From an uncultured Pseudomonadales bacterium (GTDB lineage: Bacteria; Patescibacteriota; Microgenomatia; UBA1400; PJMF01): a stretch of DNA of 64,000 nt. The notes under the pieces were generated by a model. It worked only from the letters and a program-made list of their open reading frames with translations. It ran no database searches and had not been told where the DNA came from. The stretch is taken from assembly GCA_964574595.1 (NCBI GenBank), contig CAZNOF010000001.1:142721-206720 (forward strand). The letters run 5' to 3'. Every line of letters begins with the position of its first letter. Within the stretch, counting starts at the first letter, position 1. A program made the translations under genes and the position numbers. Below, piece after piece: positions 13,199 through 32,781 of this stretch.

Positions 13199-13756
13199 CT
13201 ATGAAAGCTTCCATATGCCAACAGTCGCAACTCTCTTCTCCTGTAAAGTAATAACTACTGTCCAACGTACTGGTCGGAATCTCAGCAGAGAAAGCTCTGC
13301 TTTAATGCCATCTTTGTAAATAGGAAAACACATATAATCATTTGCCAATAAAAACTTGCCAAGCGATTGGATTTTATCGAGGGCCTTTTTCTTGTCTAAC
13401 ATATAGTAAAAAACTTCAGAACAGATTACTAAGTCGAACTTTTTTTCAAACTTTAACTCTTCAATCGCACCAACCCTAAAATCTACACCTTTCACTCTTT
13501 TTCTAGCACGTTCAATTGCCAATGGAGTGACGTCTATTGCGGTAATATCCGTACATATGCCTTGCAACATTTGCGTAAAATGTCCCTCTGCACAACCGAT
13601 CTCTAAAATTGAAGCATGTGGAACGGAATTCGCATATTCGAGTAGTTTCTTAAATCGTTTCTTTTCGTGTGGCGATGTCTCAAAATGCCAATGGTCTTCA
13701 CCTTTAACATCGAAATCTTTCGCAAGTTGTTGGTACACTTTTATTTGTTTTTCCAT
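13199..13756 (-). CDS. Class I SAM-dependent methyltransferase
   Basis: Motif I ILEIGCAEGHFT and motif II DLVICSEV. Confidence 0.75.
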   Translation of the reverse strand: MEKQIKVYQQLAKDFDVKGEDHWHFETSPHEKKRFKKLLEYANSVPHASILEIGCAEGHFTQMLQGICTDITAIDVTPLAIERARKRVKGVDFRVGAIEELKFEKKFDLVICSEVFYYMLDKKKALDKIQSLGKFLLANDYMCFPIYKDGIKAELSLLRFRPVRWTVVITLQEKRVATVGIWKLS

Positions 13757-13885
13757 AATAGGTCCTTATACACTGCTGTTTTGACGGATTCACGTTCTGG
13801 TACTTTATGTCCTGATGATGGGAATAGGATGGGAACATCTTATTTTCATCCTATTCCCATACTTGCCGATTTATACTTTGGGCAT

Positions 13886-14674
13886 ATGTCATCAGAATCA
13901 TCTCCAACATCCGTCGAAAATCACTTGTGGAACAAAGTTCCGGAAATTACCCTCTTTTTCTGGATCATTAAAGTTTTGTGTACGACAGTCGGTGAAACTG
14001 CTGCGGATTTTCTCAATACCAGTCTTCACTTAGGCCTCAATGGAACGACAATCGTAATGGGAACACTTCTGGCAATTGTTCTATTCTTTCAATTAAAAGC
14101 AAAGAGGTACATTCCCGGGCTCTATTGGCTGGCAGTGGTACTCATTAGTGTGTTTGGAACACTGATTACAGATAATCTTACGGACAATTTGGGAGTAAAT
14201 TTATTGACCTCTACGGCAGTTTTCAGTGTTGCCTTAGTAGCAGTGTTTGGAATATGGTATGCGTTTGAAAAAACTCTTTCCATGCACAGTATATTTACTT
14301 TACGAAGGGAATCGTTCTACTGGCTGACTGTCCTCTGTACCTTTGCGTTAGGAACCGCTGCAGGCGATTTGGTTGCTGAGCAGTTTGATCTTGGATACGC
14401 ACTTTCAGCACTCCTCTTTGCCGGGATTATTGCGGCAATTACTATTGCTCATAAAAAATTCAAACTCAATGCAATCGTCGCCTTTTGGGGTGCTTATATT
14501 TTGACTCGACCACTAGGGGCATCGATCGGAGACTATTTATCTCAGCCAAGTGAAAATGGAGGTCTTGGGCTAGGAACCGTTGTAACAAGTATCATCTTCC
14601 TCACTGCAATTTTAGGTACCGTTATCTATCTGGCAGTTACGAAGAAAGATGTTTCAAAACATCTCACAGCCTAA
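13886..14674 (+). CDS. Polytopic membrane protein with three internal repeats (LCTTVGETAADFL / LCTFALGTAAGDL / LTRPLGASIGDYL)
   Basis: The track ORF starts at 13667, but that stretch overlaps the antisense methyltransferase, so the start was moved to the ATG at 13886. Three repeats of helix–G-x-x-x-D–helix are visible in the translation. Confidence 0.45.
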   Translation: MSSESSPTSVENHLWNKVPEITLFFWIIKVLCTTVGETAADFLNTSLHLGLNGTTIVMGTLLAIVLFFQLKAKRYIPGLYWLAVVLISVFGTLITDNLTDNLGVNLLTSTAVFSVALVAVFGIWYAFEKTLSMHSIFTLRRESFYWLTVLCTFALGTAAGDLVAEQFDLGYALSALLFAGIIAAITIAHKKFKLNAIVAFWGAYILTRPLGASIGDYLSQPSENGGLGLGTVVTSIIFLTAILGTVIYLAVTKKDVSKHLTA

Positions 14675-14719
14675 GTTTCTCTCATCTTGCTCTCATCTCC
14701 CTACCAGTATAATAGCCCT

Positions 14720-15394
14720 ATGCAAATACTCATTGTAGAAGACGAGCTTAAGATAGCTCACTTTCTCAAACGTGGACTTTCCGAGGAAGGATATGTTATC
14801 GACCTTGCCCATGATGGCGAACAAGGACTGGAAAAATTTGAAATAAATTCCTACGACCTTATCATTTTGGATATCATGATTCCCAAAATTAATGGCGTAG
14901 CGGTCTGTAAAACTATACGGGAGAAGGATACGAATATTCCCATTTTAATGTTGACCGCAAAAGCTGCCATCGATGACAAAATTGCCGGGCTTGATGCTGG
15001 GGCAGACGACTACATGATTAAGCCATTTTCATTTGCCGAACTTTCAGCACGGATACGAGCATTACTTCGTCGAGGAAAAAAAGCTGACCCCACCATATTC
15101 ACTATAAATAACTTAGAGCTCAATCCTGCGACGAGAACTGCTAGTCGAGCAGGAAAACTTATTACCCTGACGACCAGAGAATACGCACTCCTGGAATATT
15201 TCATGCGTAACCCCAACATCGTCCTTACAAAAACACAAATACTTGAGCATGTCTGGGACTACAATTACGACGGGCTCTCAAATATTGTGGAAACATACGT
15301 AAAATACCTTCGTAAAAAATTACTGACTAGTAGATCAGAAAAAGAGCTCATTCATACCCTTCGCGGTTCCGGGTACATTCTAAAAATTGCGTAA
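14720..15394 (+). CDS. OmpR-family response regulator
   Basis: Starts MQILIVEDE, has LMLTAK and a winged helix (RGSGY). Start taken at the ATG at 14720. Confidence 0.9.
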   Translation: MQILIVEDELKIAHFLKRGLSEEGYVIDLAHDGEQGLEKFEINSYDLIILDIMIPKINGVAVCKTIREKDTNIPILMLTAKAAIDDKIAGLDAGADDYMIKPFSFAELSARIRALLRRGKKADPTIFTINNLELNPATRTASRAGKLITLTTREYALLEYFMRNPNIVLTKTQILEHVWDYNYDGLSNIVETYVKYLRKKLLTSRSEKELIHTLRGSGYILKIA

Positions 15395-15395
15395 T

Positions 15396-16412
15396 ATGTT
15401 TACCAAAGCCCAAGTACAGCTAACCATTCTCTATTCCATCTTTTTCTTAGGTTTGTTTTGGATTTTCAGTTTTGGACTGTATACATGGATGAATAGTTCT
15501 TTTGGCGAGGGATATATTAGTCAAGTTCAATATCGTCAGGGAGAAAAAATAGTTGATGAGGATTCCATAAAACCAGGAAGTAACAACGAAAAGATAGTCA
15601 CGATCGCTGGAGACGTGGCATTGGATCAGTTACTGCGTATTTTAATTGTCCTCAATGGAGTATTCCTGTTTGTCATTCCTGCAGTATCTTGGTATTTAGC
15701 CAAACGAACCCTCAAACCTGTACAAAAAGTACACGAGCGTCAAAGACAGTTTGTTTCTGATGCTTCACATGAGTTGTGCACTCCGCTGTCCATTATGAGT
15801 GGAGAGATGGAAGTCATCCTCAAAAAAGACAGAAGTGCCCATGAGTATAAGAAAACGATTATCAGTACCAAGGAAGAAGTCGAGCGACTCAATACTCTGG
15901 TAGAGAATCTTTTGTTTCTCGCTCGTGAAGATCAACACAAACATTCCCTTCATATAGAGTCCGTAGATATCACGGACGTTGTACATTCAGCTGTCGCATC
16001 CCTGCATCCAAATGCAAGGAGAAAACAAGTTGAGATAAATTTTGTTCCGCCACAGGAGAGCGTTACAACCAAAGGAAACGCTGCGATGCTCCAGCAACTA
16101 TTTGTCAACCTCATCGATAATGCAATCAAATATACGCCTACAAATGGACATATACGTATCTCCATTACTCCAAAAAAAGATGGGGTGGAGATCATCGTAC
16201 AAGATACAGGAATCGGGATTAGTGATGAACAGAAAGCAAAGATTTTCGACAGATTTTATCGAGTTGATTCTGCACGATCGGAAACCAAAGGATATGGATT
16301 GGGATTAGCCATCAGTAAATCAATTATTGATCGACACCATGGGTCTTTAACTGTAACTTCAATAGTTGGAAAAGGCTCGATGTTTCTTGTAAAGCTTCCC
16401 TACTCAGGATAA
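15396..16412 (+). CDS. Sensor histidine kinase
   Basis: H-box HELCTPLS, N-box LIDNAIKYT, G1 DTGIGIS, G2 GYGLGLAI, with two TM helices. Start taken at the ATG at 15396, just after the response-regulator stop. Confidence 0.85.
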   Translation: MFTKAQVQLTILYSIFFLGLFWIFSFGLYTWMNSSFGEGYISQVQYRQGEKIVDEDSIKPGSNNEKIVTIAGDVALDQLLRILIVLNGVFLFVIPAVSWYLAKRTLKPVQKVHERQRQFVSDASHELCTPLSIMSGEMEVILKKDRSAHEYKKTIISTKEEVERLNTLVENLLFLAREDQHKHSLHIESVDITDVVHSAVASLHPNARRKQVEINFVPPQESVTTKGNAAMLQQLFVNLIDNAIKYTPTNGHIRISITPKKDGVEIIVQDTGIGISDEQKAKIFDRFYRVDSARSETKGYGLGLAISKSIIDRHHGSLTVTSIVGKGSMFLVKLPYSG

Positions 16413-18154: not shown

Positions 18155-19453
18155 ATGCGTCACACCACCGTATTCATCATTTTCATTTTGCTTGCTATAT
18201 TCCTACCGTCGCCTGTTTTTGCTGTTTCCAATAACCTAGAAGTTACACAATTCACCTCATCAACACTCAACACTCTCACTATTCTTGCCTCTTTGGTAGC
18301 CACCTTTTTTCTACTCCAGGGAGGATATCTCTATATCACCTCAGCAGGAAAGCCTGATGCGCTGCAAGCAGCAAAGAAAACAATTCGGAATGCATCGATC
18401 GGATTAGTGTTGGTTCTCTCCGCAAACACAATTACTTCTCTACTCACTGGAGCATTTACGACTCCAAGTATCCCGATAGATGGAAATTCCCTCGCTTTAA
18501 CGCCAATCGAACCCGTGGCTCCAAGTAGCGGGTTGGCTCAAGTGTTAACTGATTCCATCGCCTCTCTACTTCAGAATATTATCCAAAGTGCTACCAAACC
18601 CATTACGGATGCGATTCTTAGCTTTCTCACCATTACCCCCACTCTGGCAACAAACTCCGTAATTTTTAACTTCTGGCTCATTATCGTAGGTATAACCGAC
18701 TCACTCTTTGCACTTCTGATTGCAGTCTTAGGCTTTCAATTTATGAGTGCGTCAACATTTGGATTTGAAGAACTTGAGCTCAAACAATTATTGCCTCGCA
18801 TTGGTCTGGCCTTTTTAGGAGCAAACACATCCATTTTTATCATTGACTGGATTGTGAAGTTGCTCAATGTTCTCGTGTCTGCAATTCTTCATGCCACGGG
18901 AGGACTCAATCAAGTATGGCTTGCCAACGCGTTTAACCCCGCATCACTGTCTACAGATCAAATTGCACTCATCACACTGATCTTTATGATTCTCTTTCTT
19001 ATCCTGGCAGTCGTTCTGCTACTTTTCTATATCACACGCTTAATCGTGATTGCGCTGGGAGCGGTACTTTCTCCATTACTGTTTTTGCTTTGGTCAGTAC
19101 CAAAGTTTGCTGATTTTGCAGAAATCTCAGCCAAGTCGTATCTGGTAACCGTTTTCTCTATCTTCATACACGTTGTCATCATTCAATTGGCTGCTTCATT
19201 TTTAACACTTCCGGGACAGGTGGGAACAAATTCACTGATCTCAATTCTCGTTGGTGTAGGACTCCTTATGACACTCCTGAAAACTCAATCATTTATGATT
19301 CAACTCATGTTTTACAACTCCGGTCGTTCGATGATCAAACGCATTGGTGGGCAGTTGATGAATGTGATGAGTAGTAAGCAATCGGAATCGACTGCGACGC
19401 CATATTTTGCCGATAAATCTATAAAAACTGCGAGAAAGGTTGTGAACGCATGA
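18155..19453 (+). CDS. Pilin-like N-terminal module fused to a VirB6/TrbL-like polytopic membrane domain
   Basis: The first ~100 aa are paralogous to the upstream pilin (SPVFA cleavage site, LAS/LVA helix, YITS[SA]G[NK]P[ED][SA]L..AKKTI). The remaining ~330 aa contain at least five TM helices. Confidence 0.55.
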   Translation: MRHTTVFIIFILLAIFLPSPVFAVSNNLEVTQFTSSTLNTLTILASLVATFFLLQGGYLYITSAGKPDALQAAKKTIRNASIGLVLVLSANTITSLLTGAFTTPSIPIDGNSLALTPIEPVAPSSGLAQVLTDSIASLLQNIIQSATKPITDAILSFLTITPTLATNSVIFNFWLIIVGITDSLFALLIAVLGFQFMSASTFGFEELELKQLLPRIGLAFLGANTSIFIIDWIVKLLNVLVSAILHATGGLNQVWLANAFNPASLSTDQIALITLIFMILFLILAVVLLLFYITRLIVIALGAVLSPLLFLLWSVPKFADFAEISAKSYLVTVFSIFIHVVIIQLAASFLTLPGQVGTNSLISILVGVGLLMTLLKTQSFMIQLMFYNSGRSMIKRIGGQLMNVMSSKQSESTATPYFADKSIKTARKVVNA

Positions 19454-19935
19454 GAACCACTATTATTCCTGCTCAAATTACATCAGTTGAAGATACCATT
19501 GCAGGGAATTTAAACCTGCAACAAATTGTGTTGTTTATTCTTTCCCTTTTTATCAATACCTTTTTGTATGCGCTTCTTCCTATGCGCCTTGCGTTTACGT
19601 TCTACAAAATTCCAATCATGATCGCGGTCTTCGTAGTATGCATTGGTCTATCGCTTCGAATTAAGCAACGGATCGTTCTCGATTGGCTGGTTGTCTTTGT
19701 TCGATATGCCATTCGTCCACATCTGTATTTCTTTAATAAGAATTCGGAAGTTTTCCGATCCATCGTCGTTGAAAAAGTAATTCTCAAACAATCATTCAAA
19801 CAAACTCCTATTCTCGATTACAAGCTAGATCGTCCCAATTCATCCGCCTTCGACTATACATCCCTTTTACGTAATCCATCGCTAAACATCCAGTTCAAAC
19901 GCAATCGTGTTCAGGTAATCAAAAACTATGAGTAG
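19450..19935 (+). CDS. VirB3/PrgI-like small membrane protein
   Basis: 161 aa with two TM helices, immediately upstream of VirB4 and overlapping the previous gene by ATGA. Confidence 0.4.
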   Translation: MRTTIIPAQITSVEDTIAGNLNLQQIVLFILSLFINTFLYALLPMRLAFTFYKIPIMIAVFVVCIGLSLRIKQRIVLDWLVVFVRYAIRPHLYFFNKNSEVFRSIVVEKVILKQSFKQTPILDYKLDRPNSSAFDYTSLLRNPSLNIQFKRNRVQVIKNYE

Positions 19936-20542
19936 ACTCAACAAAGCAGCATCGTCTCGGTCACAGATCAACATCAAAGAAGTCAAAGATGGTGTTCTGG
20001 TTTTGCCTGGAAAAAAGTACCGCATGATTGTTGAGACATCAGCAGTGAACTTTGAATTGAAAAGTGAAGAAGAACAAGATCAAATCATCGACATGTTCCA
20101 AAATTTCTTAAATTCTCTTCCTTGCCCTGTACAAATACTTATACGAACCAGAGAAGTGGATATCGATGGCTATCTTGAGGAGTTTATGCAGCACAAATCT
20201 CAAGAGAAAGAAGTAGTCTACAAGGAACAGATTGATGAATACGCTTTGTTTATTAAGAAACTCATCTCAGGAAACAAAATTCTTTCTCGAAAGTTTTTTA
20301 TCGTCATCCCATATACCTCAGAAAATGGAAAACACGACTTCTCTCTCATTAAAGAACAACTTCAAGTAAGTGTAGATATTATTTCAAAAGGGCTTGAGCG
20401 AATGGGGATGAAGACACGGACACTCGGAAATTTGGAAACGCTCGACCTTTTCTATAGTTTTTATAACCCTGCTCATACAAAATCTCAGCCATTAACTAAA
20501 AAGGCTGTCCAAGCATTACTAGCGGAATCCTATGGAATTTAA
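19928..20542 (+). CDS. VirB4 N-terminal domain as a separate ORF
   Basis: 204 aa. Together with the next ORF (597 aa) the length matches a canonical ~800-aa VirB4/TrsE. The junction is ATGGAATTTAA, i.e. translational coupling in a different frame. Confidence 0.45.
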   Translation: MSRLNKAASSRSQINIKEVKDGVLVLPGKKYRMIVETSAVNFELKSEEEQDQIIDMFQNFLNSLPCPVQILIRTREVDIDGYLEEFMQHKSQEKEVVYKEQIDEYALFIKKLISGNKILSRKFFIVIPYTSENGKHDFSLIKEQLQVSVDIISKGLERMGMKTRTLGNLETLDLFYSFYNPAHTKSQPLTKKAVQALLAESYGI

Positions 20543-22325
20543 ACCAGTTACATATCTGACGAAAAGAATAAAAGCATTTCAAAAGCGAAAAAAAACGCAA
20601 GACAAAGCACGTCAATTTGAATTTGGAACACAAGATCAAGTCGATCTGATTTCCTATGCCAGCTTGAAAGAAACGTCAAACTATATTGAACTCGATGGGA
20701 AAGTCATGCGAACACTTTTTATATCAGGCTACCCGTATGTTGCAACGACTGGCTGGCTCTCAATGCTTACCAACTTCAATCATAACGTCGATATCTCGTA
20801 TCACATTGAACTGGTTGATCCCTTGATTGCACTCCCTAAACTCACTCGAAAAATCACTGAACTTGAATCAACCCGGCGATCCATGCTCACCGAAGGGAAA
20901 ATTATTAGCTCAGAGATCCTTGATCCACTTGAGTCCGCCATGAAACTCAAAGATAGAATTCTACGAGGACAAGAAAAACTTTTCCAGGTCTCCATTTATG
21001 TCACATTGATTGCTGACACGCTTTTGGATCTCAATAAGACGACTACTCTTTTGGAAACCACTCTTGCCACAAAACTGTTCTATACAAAAATTGCCGGATT
21101 CCAGCAGCTTGAAGCATTGCAGTCAATTCTGCCTAGAGGAGAAAATCTATTGGCACAGAAAAGAAACTTAGATAGTTCTTCTGCTGCCCTTACTTTCCCA
21201 TTCACATCCTCGGAACTCGTGCAGGAATCAGGAATTTTGTATGGAATCAACAAATCCAATAATTCCCTTGTCATCATCGATCGATTTTCACTTCACAATG
21301 CGAACAGTATTATCTTTGCCCAATCTGGAAGTGGAAAAAGTTATTCTGCAAAAGTAGAAATTTTACGTCAACTGATGCAGAAGACAAAAGTGATTGTAAT
21401 CGATCCGGAGCGTGAATATAAACAACTGTGCGAATCTCTCAACGGTACATATATCAAATTATCCGTTAATTCCAAAGAAAAGATCAATCCGTTTGATTTC
21501 TCTCTCAATGCCTCTGGTTCGGAAAATAGCCTCGCCGAACATATTCAGGACCTCACCGAGGTAATTTCACTTATGGTTGAGGGTCTTACGGCTCAAGAAA
21601 AAGCAATTCTCGACCGTGCCATCATCCAGACATATAAGGAAGCTGGGTTTTCGCTTCGAGCAGTTCAAAAATCTCGAGGTAAACATGTCTATCCACTCTT
21701 GAAACACTTATATAAAAACCTAAAAGCTGAGGGAGAAAAAGGTTTGACAGCCAGACTAGAAAAATTTGTAACAGGTTCGCTTGCGACCGTGTTTGATAGT
21801 CAGACAAACATTAAACTCGATAATCGCCTGGTTATTTTTGACATAAAAGATCTTCCTGAATCAATTCGAAAGATTATGCTCGTGATCGTGGCAAACTTTG
21901 TCTACAACCAAGTGAAAATAGAGCCTCAAAAACGTTTACTCATAATTGATGAAGGCTGGTTACTCCTGGAACACCAAGAAAGTGCCAGATTTGTGGCTGG
22001 GTTAGCGCGTCGAGCCAGAAAATATTATCTCGGTGTAAGTATCATTACCCAACAAGCCAATGACTTTTTAAACAATGAATATGGTCGAGCGATTGCCTCA
22101 CAGGCCTCTTTGAGGATTCTGATGCGTCAGGACACCACCACCATCGCAGGAGTAGCTCGAGAATTCAAACTCAGTGAATACGAAGAAAAATTCCTACTCA
22201 CCTGTGATCGAGGTGAAGCCATTATCATTGCAGATCAGAATCATGTGGCGATAAAAGTAGTGGCTTCCGAGAAAGAACATCCTTTAATAACCACAGATCC
22301 CAAAGAACTTTTCCAAACCCCATGA
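20532..22325 (+). CDS. VirB4/TraC/TrsE-family T4SS ATPase (C-terminal ATPase portion)
   Basis: Walker A AQSGSGKSY, Walker B LLIIDEGW, plus AGLARRARKY and ITQQ motifs. Confidence 0.8.
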   Translation: MEFKPVTYLTKRIKAFQKRKKTQDKARQFEFGTQDQVDLISYASLKETSNYIELDGKVMRTLFISGYPYVATTGWLSMLTNFNHNVDISYHIELVDPLIALPKLTRKITELESTRRSMLTEGKIISSEILDPLESAMKLKDRILRGQEKLFQVSIYVTLIADTLLDLNKTTTLLETTLATKLFYTKIAGFQQLEALQSILPRGENLLAQKRNLDSSSAALTFPFTSSELVQESGILYGINKSNNSLVIIDRFSLHNANSIIFAQSGSGKSYSAKVEILRQLMQKTKVIVIDPEREYKQLCESLNGTYIKLSVNSKEKINPFDFSLNASGSENSLAEHIQDLTEVISLMVEGLTAQEKAILDRAIIQTYKEAGFSLRAVQKSRGKHVYPLLKHLYKNLKAEGEKGLTARLEKFVTGSLATVFDSQTNIKLDNRLVIFDIKDLPESIRKIMLVIVANFVYNQVKIEPQKRLLIIDEGWLLLEHQESARFVAGLARRARKYYLGVSIITQQANDFLNNEYGRAIASQASLRILMRQDTTTIAGVAREFKLSEYEEKFLLTCDRGEAIIIADQNHVAIKVVASEKEHPLITTDPKELFQTP

Positions 22326-22921
22326 ATCCATTCTTACTCTGGAACATTTTTTCCTTTCGTCATGAAATTAAATATGTTGCCTTAGCTTTCATTCTCATCC
22401 TCTGTTTGCCGTTCATTGCTGTGATCGCCCTCACCCATACAGGAACAGATGTTGTTTCTGATCAATTGGTCAATAGTACACAAAATGAGTCAGTCGAAAT
22501 TAAAAACCCTCTGAATGGAACAATTCTCAAGAAAATAGATGGACCATTCATCTGGCCAATACATGGAAGAATTACTCTTGAATTTGGAGAGTCTGATTTG
22601 CCCTACCAGCCATTTCATACGGGGATAGATATTGCCGGAAAACCTGGAGATCCTGTGATCTCATTTCTTAAAGGTACAGTGATCTATGCTGGAGAACTGT
22701 CTTGGGGATATGGAAAACACATCATCGTTGATAACGGAAACAATGTGACGTCACTCTACGGCCACTTAAGTAAGATTTCAGTCAAAAAAGGGGATGTAGT
22801 CCCTCAAGGACAAATAATTGGATTGAGAGGAAGTACAGGATGGTCAACTGGAGCACACCTTCATTTTGAAACGAGAGTATTTGGAATCCCAGTCAATCCA
22901 AGGGTATTTTTAGGAAAATAG
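22322..22921 (+). CDS. Membrane-anchored M23/LytM peptidase (T4SS-associated wall hydrolase)
   Basis: N-terminal TM helix, HTGIDIAG and HLHFE motifs. Overlaps the VirB4 stop by ATGA. Confidence 0.8.
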   Translation: MNPFLLWNIFSFRHEIKYVALAFILILCLPFIAVIALTHTGTDVVSDQLVNSTQNESVEIKNPLNGTILKKIDGPFIWPIHGRITLEFGESDLPYQPFHTGIDIAGKPGDPVISFLKGTVIYAGELSWGYGKHIIVDNGNNVTSLYGHLSKISVKKGDVVPQGQIIGLRGSTGWSTGAHLHFETRVFGIPVNPRVFLGK

Positions 22922-22927
22922 ATAATC

Positions 22928-24331
22928 CTAATATTTCATATCAACGTAGTAGCCAGTCCTTCCATAGCACGGGTACCCACTTTTAGTTTTATGCGGATTG
23001 AGGCTCCCACTATGTGTAGTTTTCGTAAACCGCTTGCCGCAGGCAGTACATTGATAAATGTATCTTGGTCCAACTGAAACGCTTCTTCTCGTTCTTCCAA
23101 ATCTTGTTCTAGGCGCACTTAATGGTTTGTTTGGATCAAACAGGTGAGGATCTTCTGGCGTTTCTCCTGCCTTAGATAGTTCTATAATAAAACCCTCCCT
23201 GGGTTTGAATTTTTCTTCAGTGTTCTCTATAGATTGAAAGTTCTCCGATACAAAACACCGAACCCCAGGAGCACTTTGTCCACCAGAACAGTTGTATACG
23301 TAAAAATATTCTCGTTCTTGTCCATCTCTTTTTTGGAGGTATTTCAATGAATAAGGCTCGATCATTCGATTTTCTCCTTTATAGCAGACCTTCAAAAGAG
23401 TTTGAGTTCGAGCGGCGTGCATAATTGGATTTCTTAACTCAGGTCCAAAGTATGCAAACTGCGAATACCCATTATCTGGATATACACTGAAGAGTGTCTC
23501 CAAATCTCCTAAGAATGTGGCAATTGCCTCGTCTACACCAAACACAAATTGTTGTGCACACACCAGAGTTTTATCCCAGTATTCTCTAAAGTAATCAAAT
23601 GAAGTTTTGAGTAGGATATTTTTCAATACGTGAGGGTTTTTATCAAATATCGTTTTACGTATTAGCGTTTGGACGACTTCTTCTTTGTTGAGTTGTCCTC
23701 CCAACATTTTTATAGAGTAAGCGTAGTCAAACAGGTCGGGAGCGTGTTGTCGTTGAAGCAAACACTTAAGTTTAGTTGCAATAATCTCTTCTAGCTTCAT
23801 ACATCGTATGTCTGTAGTGAGCTCGCCTGCATCAGAATATGGGTGAATCAATTTTACAGTTTGGATTGGCAAAAGTACTTTATCAAAACGGGTAATATCC
23901 ATTGAAATTCGTATCCTGAAATGCTCAGCATTTCCATAAAAGTCACGAAAGTAGACTCGTGCTTCGTACACTTTCAGTCCGGGGATCGGAGCTTCACTCG
24001 CAGAAAATTTCTCTTCAACTTTATTATCCTCCTTAATAAAAGAGACATGTGCTTTCTCTTGAATAAAATCACAAACATTATTGATCTCTTTTAGCAATAT
24101 TTCCTGTGATATGTCTCCTGGAATACCAAAGTCTAAATCTGCTGAAAAGCGAGTGTTTTCGAAGTAGCCTTTACGGAGAGCGTTGCCTCCTTTTAGAAAA
24201 AGCTCATCTTTGAGGCCACTCACCGTGAAAAAGCCGTGAATTAGCCAGCCAAAAACATAATCCCTCTCCACATTTGACCGATGGATTTCAAATTCGACAG
24301 CTTTGGCATCAATTTCTTCTTTTTTGATCAT
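22928..24331 (-). CDS. AbiEii/DUF1814-like Pol-beta nucleotidyltransferase fused to a WYL-like domain and a C-terminal zinc-finger-like tail
   Basis: NTase motif FLKGGNALRKGYFENTRFSADLDF (hG[GS]...DhD). WYL-like segment RMIEPYSLKYLQKRDGQEREYFYVYN..GVRCFVSENFQSIE. C-terminal YQCTACGKRFTKTTHSGSLNPH (C-x2-C...H...H). Start set at M34 (24331) to avoid overlapping the divergent XRE gene. Confidence 0.55.
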   Translation of the reverse strand: MIKKEEIDAKAVEFEIHRSNVERDYVFGWLIHGFFTVSGLKDELFLKGGNALRKGYFENTRFSADLDFGIPGDISQEILLKEINNVCDFIQEKAHVSFIKEDNKVEEKFSASEAPIPGLKVYEARVYFRDFYGNAEHFRIRISMDITRFDKVLLPIQTVKLIHPYSDAGELTTDIRCMKLEEIIATKLKCLLQRQHAPDLFDYAYSIKMLGGQLNKEEVVQTLIRKTIFDKNPHVLKNILLKTSFDYFREYWDKTLVCAQQFVFGVDEAIATFLGDLETLFSVYPDNGYSQFAYFGPELRNPIMHAARTQTLLKVCYKGENRMIEPYSLKYLQKRDGQEREYFYVYNCSGGQSAPGVRCFVSENFQSIENTEEKFKPREGFIIELSKAGETPEDPHLFDPNKPLSAPRTRFGRTRRSVSVGPRYIYQCTACGKRFTKTTHSGSLNPHKTKSGYPCYGRTGYYVDMKY

Positions 24332-24422
24332 ATCTCGAGTGCAATATCTTTTGGATTGTAGTCCTCTTCCGTAAAAATCTCCAGTGCGCGGAATCTTTCT
24401 TGAATATAGTATAATTTCGAGT

Positions 24423-24632
24423 ATGGCCACTAAGAAAACAGATCAGAACGCTTTTGGAGTGCTTCTGAAAGAAGCGAGAGTAAAACTCGAGCTCACCCAG
24501 ACTCAAGTCGCCGAAAAAGCAGACATGACTAGTACTTACTATGCAATGATCGAACGAGGAGAAGTAAATCCTTCTCTTGAAAAGCTCAAGAGCCTGGCTA
24601 AAGTGCTTAAGATCAAATTGACAATCTCTTAA
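24423..24632 (+). CDS. XRE-family (Cro/CI-type) HTH transcriptional regulator
   Basis: LLKEARVKLELTQTQVAEKADMTSTYYAMIERGEVNPSLEKLKSLAKVL. It is divergent from the NTase-WYL gene. Start taken at the ATG at 24423. Confidence 0.75.
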   Translation: MATKKTDQNAFGVLLKEARVKLELTQTQVAEKADMTSTYYAMIERGEVNPSLEKLKSLAKVLKIKLTIS

Positions 24633-24931
24633 TCTAATTTTCTCTCGGCCAATACTCTTAAAGCAAATTCTCTCATAACGTCTGCCACTTTGATCGCCTG
24701 CTCTATGTTCGCATGATCTGGATCAGTTGTTTCTAGGCACTTCAGTGCGGATTCAATCAATATTTCACGATTGCTTTCACGCATGGCGAACAGTAGTGTT
24801 TCCTCTGAAATAGAATTGTACTTCTCTCCAAAGCGAGCAGATTTCGACAGTTCTAGGATTTCTGTCCAAGGTAACAAGCTCAGGTTAGAGATGCTGTCAT
24901 TTTTAGATTTCATCCCTCGTATTATAGCCAC
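24629..24931 (-). CDS. Small protein of unknown function downstream of the PLD nuclease (possible cognate inhibitor/immunity)
   Basis: 100 aa, 9 nt downstream of the PLD gene on the same strand. No recognisable motifs. Confidence 0.35.
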   Translation of the reverse strand: MAIIRGMKSKNDSISNLSLLPWTEILELSKSARFGEKYNSISEETLLFAMRESNREILIESALKCLETTDPDHANIEQAIKVADVMREFALRVLAERKLD

Positions 24932-24940
24932 TTTCTCAAG

Positions 24941-25381
24941 TTAGAGGAATTTGGAGTATTGGAGAAATTCAAACATCTCATTTGCCTCTTCTTTGTCTTC
25001 AATTCGCATCATGATTTCTCGGCTTTTGCTCTGAGATAGGATATTTAAACTTCCCTCCCAGAGGATCTCCCTGTCGAGAAGAGCTAACTTCCGATGGTGA
25101 TTTCCTGTACACAGAAGTACTTGCACTCCAAGCCTCTCAAACCGTTGGATTTCAGCTTCCGATTGTGGCTCCATTGTTTCTGTATGTTCTCGAGGATCTC
25201 GAGTAAATATATAGACTTTTACGTCTTTCTCAATAAGTAGCTTAAAATAAGGGAAAAGTGTCCTCATTCGTTCGCTTGTAATGAATGGACTTTCAACAAC
25301 GACTTCGCTAGTACAGCGAAGTAAATCTTTCTTGAATTGTTGGTAAAACGTCGTTTCGTCAAACAAAGAGGAGTTATTCAT
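24941..25381 (-). CDS. Single-HKD phospholipase-D-family nuclease (Nuc-like)
   Basis: Perfect HxKx4Dx6GSxN signature: HHRKLALLDREILWEGSLNI. At 146 aa with no signal peptide it matches dimeric single-HKD nucleases. Confidence 0.75.
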   Translation of the reverse strand: MNNSSLFDETTFYQQFKKDLLRCTSEVVVESPFITSERMRTLFPYFKLLIEKDVKVYIFTRDPREHTETMEPQSEAEIQRFERLGVQVLLCTGNHHRKLALLDREILWEGSLNILSQSKSREIMMRIEDKEEANEMFEFLQYSKFL

Positions 25382-32708: not shown

Positions 32709-32781
32709 GCCGGGATAGCTCAGTTGGTAGAGCGGCGGTATCGTAAACCGTAGGTCGTGGGTCCGATTCCCACTCCCGGCT
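32709..32781 (+). tRNA. tRNA-Thr (anticodon CGT)
   Basis: Folded by hand: acceptor GCCGGGA/TCCCGGC, D-arm GCTC-AGTTGGTA-GAGC, anticodon stem GCGGT/ACCGT with loop ATCGTAA (U33, CGT, A37), T-arm GTGGG-TCCGATT-CCCAC. No CCA is encoded. Confidence 0.85.

Follow-up and report, generated by a model that had tools for sequence, protein, structure and literature searches.

Do four adjacent genes in a Patescibacterial genome make up one defence system, or do they belong to separate units that share a site? The question is raised by positions 22,928 to 25,381 of a 64,000-nucleotide stretch of DNA, here called the window, from an uncultured bacterium listed under Pseudomonadales and placed by GTDB in Patescibacteriota (Microgenomatia; UBA1400; PJMF01). 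The window corresponds to positions 142,721 to 206,720 of the forward strand of contig CAZNOF010000001.1 (GenBank assembly GCA_964574595.1). Its initial annotation had described a two-part sensor/effector module, in which an AbiEii-type nucleotidyltransferase (NTase) fused to a WYL-like domain and a zinc finger works with a divergent XRE regulator, a PLD-family nuclease and an open reading frame (ORF) of 100 residues. Comparison with other genomes indicates that the locus probably consists of two independent units instead: a stand-alone NTase-WYL-C2HC protein that occupies a variable slot for defence cargo, and a separate cassette of XRE, small ORF and PLD. ORF calling confirmed the four genes and the 91-bp intergenic region, laid out as follows.

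22928..24331, minus strand: long-form AbiEii/MenT-type NTase, 467 residues, identified by ORF calling, Pfam and PADLOC; the cargo gene of the slot
24332..24422, no strand: divergent intergenic region of 91 bp between NTase and XRE, presumably with the promoters for both genes inside
24423..24632, plus strand: XRE/Cro-type helix-turn-helix (HTH) regulator, 69 residues, HTH_3 family; a conserved flank of the slot, convergent with the small ORF and PLD
24629..24931, minus strand: small helical ORF, 100 residues, a long version of a fast-evolving family that spaces PLD from XRE
24941..25381, minus strand: single-HKD PLD-family nuclease-like protein, 146 residues, PLDc_2 family

Two samples of loci carry the evidence for separation. 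NTase loci were sought in about 185,000 species representatives, with a single genome for each species, and 59 were found, at 45-77% identity. The second sample was anchored on the PLD gene and comprised 80 metagenomic loci, 62 of them with 600 bp or more of downstream sequence. The PLD, small ORF and XRE lie beside the NTase in three of the 59 NTase loci, all of them window-like and Patescibacterial, and an NTase is present in two of the 80 PLD-anchored loci. Dozens of genomes carry the NTase without the three other genes, and the PLD/XRE cassette persists where the slot is empty or holds unrelated cargo. Co-occurrence of NTase and PLD in other genomes had been named in the initial annotation as a check on its proposal; the few cases that were found all lie in one slot, which in substance overturns the four-gene system. 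We interpret the rare co-occurrence as the result of a shared insertion slot, that is, as positional and not functional.

This slot lies between the XRE gene and a type IV secretion system (T4SS)-like operon, which contributes the following features.

18155..22921, plus strand: T4SS-like operon (pilin/TrbC-like, TraC-like, VirB4, M23 peptidase), the other conserved flank of the slot
20532..22325, plus strand: VirB4 (DUF87, AAA_10, TraG P-loop), a member of the operon
22322..22921, plus strand: M23 peptidase, the last gene of the operon

An M23 peptidase gene is found beyond the XRE, and on the XRE strand, in 19 PLD loci. In 12 of these a VirB4 orthologue (70-82% identical) then follows the M23 gene, which identifies them as the same locus as that of the window. 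A Patescibacterial T4SS with an essential peptidase downstream of virB4 has been reported in Southlakia (bioRxiv 10.1101/2025.01.22.634366), and we attribute the conservation of the VirB4-M23 flank to this essentiality. The distance from M23 to XRE in the 19 loci with both flanks, a small sample for which the defence content is given as plain counts, ranges from 58 bp to 4.2 kb. Empty slots measure 58 bp (L111), 79 bp (L122), 85 bp (L083 and L090, each) and 112 bp (L060). The slot of the window (22922..24422) contains the NTase ORF and the 91 bp only, and the NTase is the cargo in L085 and L001 as well. Elsewhere the slot is occupied by Shedu SduA (L113, PADLOC 1.3e-143), PDC-S14 (L120, 1.8e-88), PDC-S53 (L130, E 0), a CBASS cyclase and TRIP13 beside a LexA-like gene (L069, ~1e-114 each), an OLD/AriA-like ATPase (L134), or a weak SduA_C-like gene with a probable HNH gene (L112). 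Conserved flanks, mutually exclusive cargo that includes known defence genes, and empty sites mark the slot as a candidate defence hotspot. The accessory, defence-like neighbourhood noted at first beside the T4SS-like operon is borne out. The slot resembles hotspot 5 of the SXT integrative and conjugative element (ICE) and the P2/P4 prophage hotspots in having conserved flanks around mutually exclusive cargo. It differs from them in being situated in a core Patescibacterial T4SS-like operon, with no evident ICE or prophage, and in that some of the cargo is not defence.

The CBASS-containing cargo (L069:5936-10053) consists of the LexA-like gene, the cyclase, the TRIP13 ATPase and a membrane protein, and has the look of a type III-like CBASS; the locus is of the Patescibacteria type.

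One edge of the slot is marked by the PLD, small ORF and XRE genes, a cassette that is conserved in its own right. A convergent XRE was found within 1.5 kb of the PLD in 50 of the 62 loci with room for it. The PLD matches Pfam PLDc_2 (E 1.4e-10, 41.5 bits against a cut-off of 27), and its single HKD motif, H96-x-K98-x4-D103-x6-G110-S111-x-N113, is perfect, as first described, and invariant in 31 homologues. The database holds 4621 homologues, and the best 120 of these are 143-166 residues long and 66-88% identical. The nearest solved sequence relative is Zucchini/MitoPLD (E 0.004). The PLD resembles this protein and Nuc (pKM101/IncN) in having about 150 residues with one HKD motif, which would imply a homodimeric active site; it differs from both in having no evident signal peptide and in the small helical ORF and convergent XRE that accompany it. 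The nuc gene of IncN plasmids is associated with a T4SS locus, which parallels the position of the window PLD. PADLOC also matches the PLD to the PLD domain of Mokosh MkoC (E 1.2e-10). Mokosh is defined by an MkoA-type RNA helicase with a PLD protein, or by the MkoC fusion; only the MkoC/MkoB PLD domain is matched here, and no helicase gene was found within the PLD cassette in the window or in the PLD loci.

The XRE protein is a clear HTH_3 member (Pfam E 2.8e-16, 59.7 bits against a cut-off of 23). It resembles restriction-modification (R-M) controller proteins and CapH-type regulators (PADLOC E ~1e-9 to 1e-13), and has weak NCBIfam matches to HipB/Y4mF and MqsA-type antitoxins. The distance between the PLD and XRE stop codons is bimodal in the 56 loci with a convergent XRE: 11 have almost no gap and no small ORF, and about 40 are spaced at 196-320 bp. 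The longer gaps hold an ORF of 56-103 residues, and the family as a whole spans 56-121 residues. A core, L..LK...PE.AT.E.AI..L, is common to 44 positional homologues, whose mean column identity is about 22%. The N-terminal extension of the 100-residue protein in the window is present in a subset of them. That this protein belongs to no known family still holds, since nothing was matched in Pfam, NCBIfam or PADLOC, and 43 positional homologues likewise have no Pfam family. Its absence from 11 of the 56 loci shows that the small ORF is dispensable and thus not an obligatory PLD antitoxin. Beyond the PLD no conserved gene was found, the best family reaching 3 of 29 loci. Our best guess is that the PLD is a Nuc/Zucchini-like nuclease, that the small ORF encodes a modulator it can do without, and that an XRE repressor either controls or merely accompanies them; we infer this PLD function, as we do the role of the WYL and zinc modules discussed below.

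A second copy of the small-ORF family (core motif ..EQARKLLEKNYPNDLIEETIEAVADEIQMIAKMIW) lies at L102:1906-2190:+ within the slot cargo, away from the PLD, indicating that the link between small protein and PLD is not a strict one. An exact 14-nt direct repeat, AATCTTTCTTGAAT, occurs at 24392..24405, just upstream of the XRE start, and at 25324..25337 in the 5' part of the PLD gene. The chance expectation is ~0.01-0.05 matches in 2.6 kb, and the repeat could be an operator or a coincidence. The 91-bp region itself contains a weak sigma-70-like match on the minus strand (24383..24355), and TATAAT at 24410-24415 upstream of the XRE.

What, then, is the cargo protein? An independent gene call of an identical contig gives the same 467-residue NTase and 69-residue XRE products. 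The ATG start of the NTase at 24331 is backed by 37 of 37 full-length homologues that begin with MIxK in the alignment, and the longer GTG-initiated readings in the ORF list find no support. The protein divides into four parts.

23462..24331, minus strand: NTase domain, residues 1-290, with all four AbiEii motifs and with Pfam and PADLOC matches
23138..23443, minus strand: WYL domain, residues 297-398, with one helix, a five-stranded barrel and the nearly invariant tail IELSKAGExPExPYLFDP
23069..23137, minus strand: basic linker, residues 399-421, of variable length in the alignment and predicted to be disordered
22931..23068, minus strand: C-terminal zinc module, residues 422-467, with ligands C428, C431, H447 and C455

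The assignment of the N-terminal domain to DUF1814/AbiEii is upheld by Pfam (PF08843, residues 36-232, E 4.9e-22, 79.5 bits against a cut-off of 22.5) and by PADLOC (AbiEii, residues 1-257, E 1.8e-47). Mutagenesis of AbiEii has defined motifs I-IV, namely hG[GS]-x15-DhD with an arginine in motif II, KLxxLxxR, and +DxxD, and mutation of these motifs abolishes both toxicity and GTP binding (PMC3985639). The window protein has G48G49-x15-D65xD67, R61, K187..R194 and D199xxD202, and G48, G49, R61, D65, D67, K187, R194, D199 and D202 are invariant in 38 aligned sequences. All four motifs are matched, and the catalytic core is intact. The spacing of these motifs is equivalent to that in the AbiE systems of Lactococcus and Streptococcus agalactiae. 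The window differs from those in lacking an AbiEi gene, and thus a bicistronic operon, in the 180-residue WYL and zinc module, which characterised AbiEii proteins do not have, and in the very high cross-phylum identity of its family.

An AlphaFold2 model was built on the 38-sequence alignment (mean predicted local distance difference test, pLDDT, 77.5) and compared with known structures by Foldseek. The top PDB matches were MenT3/TglT and MenT4 (entries 7c46, 6j7r, 6y5u and 6y56; E 7e-8 to 4e-7, probability 1.00), followed by PafBC, DriD and CapW. Motif I/II of MenT4 aligns with that of the window protein as FKGGTSLRK..RFSTDLDF. The best structural matches to residues 1 to ~300 are thus the MenAT toxins of Mycobacterium tuberculosis (MenT3/TglT Rv1045, MenT4 and MenT1). 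The window protein has a serine (S63) two residues ahead of the first catalytic aspartate (D65), which would be the positional counterpart of the MenT3 auto-phosphorylation site S78. The modification of tRNA by MenT and its control by auto-phosphorylation are described in PMC11375011 (see also PMC7450476 and PMC10435456). MenT proteins differ from the window protein in their length of about 290 residues without a WYL/zinc module, in always being paired with MenA, and in sequence, with about 17% identity.

The AlphaFold2 model places the end of the NTase domain at about residue 290, a helix at 297-309 and a barrel at 311-374 (pLDDT 85-95), whilst linker residues 399-417 fall below a pLDDT of 50. 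The barrel is Sm-like, with five strands and an N-terminal helix, and its nearest solved folds are WYL domains. Pfam WYL (PF13280) did not match the window NTase or its C-terminal fragments even at E <= 10. A profile of the C-terminal half of the window clade, however, matched 616 proteins among 1.84 billion representatives. These include P0355, P0388, P0383, P0325 and P0319 (E ~1e-17 to 1e-23), which score 28.6, 30.2, 34.4, 23.7 and 24.3 bits, respectively, against Pfam WYL (cut-off 21.8). P0355, P0388 and P0325 also have an N-terminal AbiEii domain, which was not matched in P0383 or P0319. The fold match and this transitive profile homology together confirm the WYL-like barrel of the initial annotation. 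Known WYL-domain regulators such as DriD, PafBC, CapW, BrxR and WYL1 are HTH-WYL(-WCX) transcription factors or Cas13d accessory proteins, whereas the WYL domain of the window is fused to an enzyme, is followed by a zinc module and has no HTH. The structures matched by the window protein include ssDNA-bound DriD and CapW.

Between barrel and linker, at 23138..23182 (residues 383-398), lies the IELSKAGExPExPYLFDP segment, which is nearly invariant in the orphan clade, that is, the window clade without AbiEi. It has no regular secondary structure in the model (pLDDT 63-75) and may be a docking or auto-regulatory peptide. It was also considered as a cis-antitoxin specific to the orphan clade. E384, L385 and G389, and only these, are shared with AbiEi-paired homologues, so that the contrast is not clean, and this candidate was rejected.

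The tail of the protein had been described as a basic stretch with a C-x2-C..H..H finger. The basic linker and a zinc module are indeed present; the ligands are of the C2HC type, as C428, C431, H447 and C455 are invariant in the NTase alignment and retained in a Rhizobium homologue at 27% overall identity, and the extra histidine of the window protein is not conserved. The module (residues 423-466) is modelled as an all-beta, zinc-ribbon-like fold at pLDDT ~90. Its profile matches C2H2 fingers weakly (E 2.6e-4 summed over repeats, with no single stretch significant), and Pfam Zn_ribbon_8 scores below its cut-off. One NTase homologue carries a zf-BED domain.

A family member of 412 residues on a plasmid of Streptomyces sp. 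NBC_01455 (L146:2501-3739) has no zinc module; its NTase and WYL domains are kept, and the basic linker forms its C-terminus. It is located downstream of another nucleotidyltransferase gene.

The NTase gene travels without fixed company. The database contains 1595 homologues, and the best 120 are all 459-490 residues long and 66-80% identical. The 59 loci are spread over Patescibacteria, Omnitrophota, Bdellovibrionales, Gamma-, Alpha- and Deltaproteobacteria, Bacteroidota, Planctomycetota, Verrucomicrobiota and Acidobacteriota, with one actinobacterial bin and one Methanosarcinales bin. Mean column identity across phyla in the NTase alignment is 73%. L085 belongs to a close relative of the window organism, with a VirB4 82% identical, yet its NTase is 72% identical, and gammaproteobacterial and archaeal-bin copies are no more distant from the window NTase than this one. 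Such a pattern suggests that the gene has spread horizontally under strong constraint. Conservation of the nucleotide sequence reaches no further than the start and stop codons, outside which it is at background level. A search for mobile-cassette signatures found no terminal inverted or direct repeats around the NTase, and on neither the 5' nor the 3' side do the NTase loci share a conserved flank; they have no common leader or small upstream ORF either. No conserved partner emerged from Pfam and PADLOC annotation, the commonest family accounting for 3 of the 102 nearest neighbours. De novo clustering of 1438 neighbour ORFs returned only generic XRE proteins, scattered in position over 17 loci, and large serine recombinases, in 8 loci. 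Other defence neighbours were Shedu in two loci and MADS genes in two or three. A phage origin of the NTase was considered and dismissed, as the family has no relatives in IMG/VR or among INPHARED phages.

The large serine recombinases (~440-520 residues) adjoin the NTase in eight of the 59 loci (L053, L054 and six others) and are found directly upstream of the PLD in three loci (L082 and two others), which hints that both units are sometimes carried on recombinase-borne elements. Two phyla share a three-gene layout in which an NTase of 50% identity sits between the type I R-M genes HsdM and HsdR, the gaps being 12-14 nt and the overlap 9 nt; it occurs in a gammaproteobacterial bin (L049:2616-9231) and in a Portnoybacteria bin (L051:73-6729).

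Is the antitoxin really missing, and did the WYL domain take its place? The absence of an adjacent AbiEi, part of the initial annotation, was confirmed in every search. No AbiEi was found among the 102 nearest NTase neighbours. Nine of nine tightly coupled upstream genes are not AbiEi, whereas the AbiEi of the control locus L141 does match AbiEi_1 and AbiEi_4. A hidden Markov model built from three cognate AbiEi proteins matched nothing at E <= 10 in the 1438 neighbour ORFs or in the window ORFs. In the window itself, the gene upstream of the NTase is the divergent XRE and not the AbiEi gene (a COG5340-type winged HTH) that comes first in an AbiE bicistron.

Plasmids in PLSDB extend the comparison. 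Sinorhizobium and Sphingomonas have stand-alone homologues, full-length and at 40% identity. At 26-28% identity, full-length homologues have AbiEi directly upstream: the annotated AbiEi gene overlaps the NTase gene by 11 nt on pCB3171_2 of Rhizobium sp. CB3171, and lies 9 bp upstream of it on pTs417 of Ca. Thiodictyon. The upstream gene that overlaps the NTase on an R. sullae plasmid is annotated only as hypothetical, and is probably also an AbiEi partner. These long forms have the same NTase-WYL-zinc architecture as the window protein. The Rhizobium CB3171 NTase (474 residues; hhalign probability 99.5%, E 2e-22) shares the WYL segment, and its zinc module is nearly identical (YxYQCxxCxKKF...L.PHK...GYPCxGRxGY). 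The WYL and zinc module thus marks a long-form AbiEii subfamily, of which one branch has kept AbiEi and the window clade is an orphan branch that lost, or never had, this partner. The earlier proposal that a WYL domain in cis stands in for AbiEi is weakened, because the AbiEi-paired homologues carry the WYL and zinc module too. This coexistence favours a role intrinsic to NTase action, such as substrate recruitment or signal gating.

How do other explanations compare with two independent units? A single multi-gene system, with the NTase-WYL-zinc finger protein as sensor or toxin, the divergent XRE, the PLD as effector and the 100-residue ORF, can draw on the adjacency of the genes in the window, L001, L058, L059, L064 and L085, on the 91-bp divergent promoter region shared by NTase and XRE, and on the MkoC match of the PLD. 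Against co-occurrence at 3 of 59 and 2 of 80 loci, and with each unit found so often without the other, we consider it extremely unlikely. The NTase might still be the toxin of a non-canonical pair, with the XRE or the variable upstream gene as its antitoxin or repressor. XRE antitoxins are common, the window XRE has the weak HipB/Y4mF and MqsA-type matches, and in many loci a same-strand upstream gene abuts or overlaps the NTase start. XRE proteins, however, make up 3 of 102 immediate neighbour genes, the upstream genes are mutually unrelated (a vitamin-uptake transporter, Hypoth_Ymh, DUF4145, HsdM and others), and the XRE is conserved with the PLD irrespective of the NTase; such a pair is very unlikely. 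It is less unlikely, though still improbable, that the cassette is itself a defence or addiction module, made up of a nuclease toxin, a small inhibitor and a regulator, with the NTase as incidental cargo. The three genes make up a tightly conserved set, the small ORF shows the rapid evolution common among immunity or inhibitor proteins, the XRE resembles R-M controller and CapH-type regulators, and recombinases lie directly upstream of the PLD in three loci. Yet the PLD is intact in the 11 convergent-XRE loci that lack the small ORF and is itself highly conserved, and its frequent synteny with a core T4SS-like operon is also in keeping with an accessory role like that of Nuc.

The main rival concerns the NTase itself, which might be a non-immune nucleic-acid-processing enzyme, for example one that tails or repairs RNA or tRNA 3' ends under stress or damage and uses the WYL and zinc modules to bind its substrate. 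Its exceptionally high full-length conservation across phyla, the failure to find an antitoxin, the retention of the zinc module even at 27% overall identity, and the work of the WYL proteins DriD and PafBC in DNA-damage responses, where they bind ssDNA, would all suit such an enzyme. A processing enzyme fits poorly with a patchy distribution (59 of ~185,000 species representatives), with a gene found in variable slots, within type I R-M operons and beside recombinases, with growth-arresting toxins as the closest characterised relatives, and with related long forms in classical AbiEi-AbiEii operons. On balance we judge it unlikely. Two independent units, with the NTase as defence cargo, therefore remain the reading that we prefer, and several points weigh against it. 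A mean column identity of 73% is unusual for a gene in an arms race and would also fit a conserved cellular role. The toxicity of the NTase, its substrate and its part in phage defence are attributed to it from homology and position. Absence from IMG/VR and INPHARED is neutral as to defence and provides no positive phage link. Many source genomes are metagenome bins, and binning error may lie behind some of the taxa, such as the archaeal bin. The slot also takes cargo other than defence genes, including an aminotransferase-like gene (L088), a cupin-like gene (L073) and several unannotated genes. The AbiEi-paired long forms indicate that the WYL/zinc module alone is no substitute for an antitoxin, and the reading gives no account of how the orphan clade avoids self-intoxication.

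With the NTase taken as stand-alone defence cargo, a mechanism can be outlined. The NTase core, like MenT and AbiEii, would transfer nucleotides to the 3' ends of tRNA, or of another universally conserved RNA, and the modified ends would stall translation. The WYL and zinc modules may bind single-stranded nucleic acid, and would either recruit the substrate or gate the NTase on a nucleic-acid signal of infection or damage. As no AbiEi is present in the window clade, the NTase would have to be controlled either through its expression or in cis, by WYL/zinc gating and perhaps by auto-phosphorylation of S63. If the target is universal, this would account for the ability of a single sequence to function across phyla. 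More tentatively, and as a possibility well short of probable, the orphan NTase-WYL-zinc protein could be a complete one-protein abortive-infection system, in which the WYL/zinc part senses single-stranded nucleic acid from infection and releases an auto-inhibited MenT-like tRNA nucleotidyltransferase.

Elsewhere in the window, Rfam matched only a tRNA (32709..32781) and no other known RNA element. Just upstream of the T4SS-like operon, 13667..16412 encodes a membrane protein with DUF347 repeats, followed by an OmpR-type response regulator and a histidine kinase. Within the operon, the VirB4/TraC-like ATPase is apparently split (19928..22325) into an N-terminal ORF of 204 residues, with a weak TraC_F_IV match, and an ATPase ORF of 597 residues that overlaps it by 11 nt.

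The domain architecture is not undescribed, as had been supposed, since a WYL fusion to an AbiGII-like NTase (DUF1814) was already listed by Makarova et al. 2014 (PMC4012209). That one-line catalogue entry was all that a search of the literature on an AbiEii-WYL system returned, and no functional study was found. Whilst the fusion itself is known, the zinc module is new, as are the orphan status of the clade, its conservation between phyla and the slot next to the Patescibacterial T4SS.

To our knowledge, PADLOC and DefenseFinder call AbiE only when AbiEi and AbiEii are paired. If so, a widespread antitoxin-less long-form AbiEii, 60-80% identical across phyla, would be missed as a system, although PADLOC protein models match the window NTase. 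The NTase offers a test case for how a MenT/AbiEii-type toxin is controlled without an antitoxin, and for a WYL domain fused to an enzyme instead of an HTH. The conserved PLD and small-ORF pair, abundant in these genomes, provides two further families for functional study, and the slot between the T4SS-like operon and XRE/PLD is a concrete, alignable site for cataloguing Patescibacterial immune cargo. If the one-protein system is real, a universal sensor and a universal target would let a single protein serve bacterial phyla and archaea, which would account for its extreme conservation and wide horizontal spread, and the slot by the Patescibacterial T4SS-like operon would add a hitherto overlooked defence hotspot to a group regarded as immune-poor.

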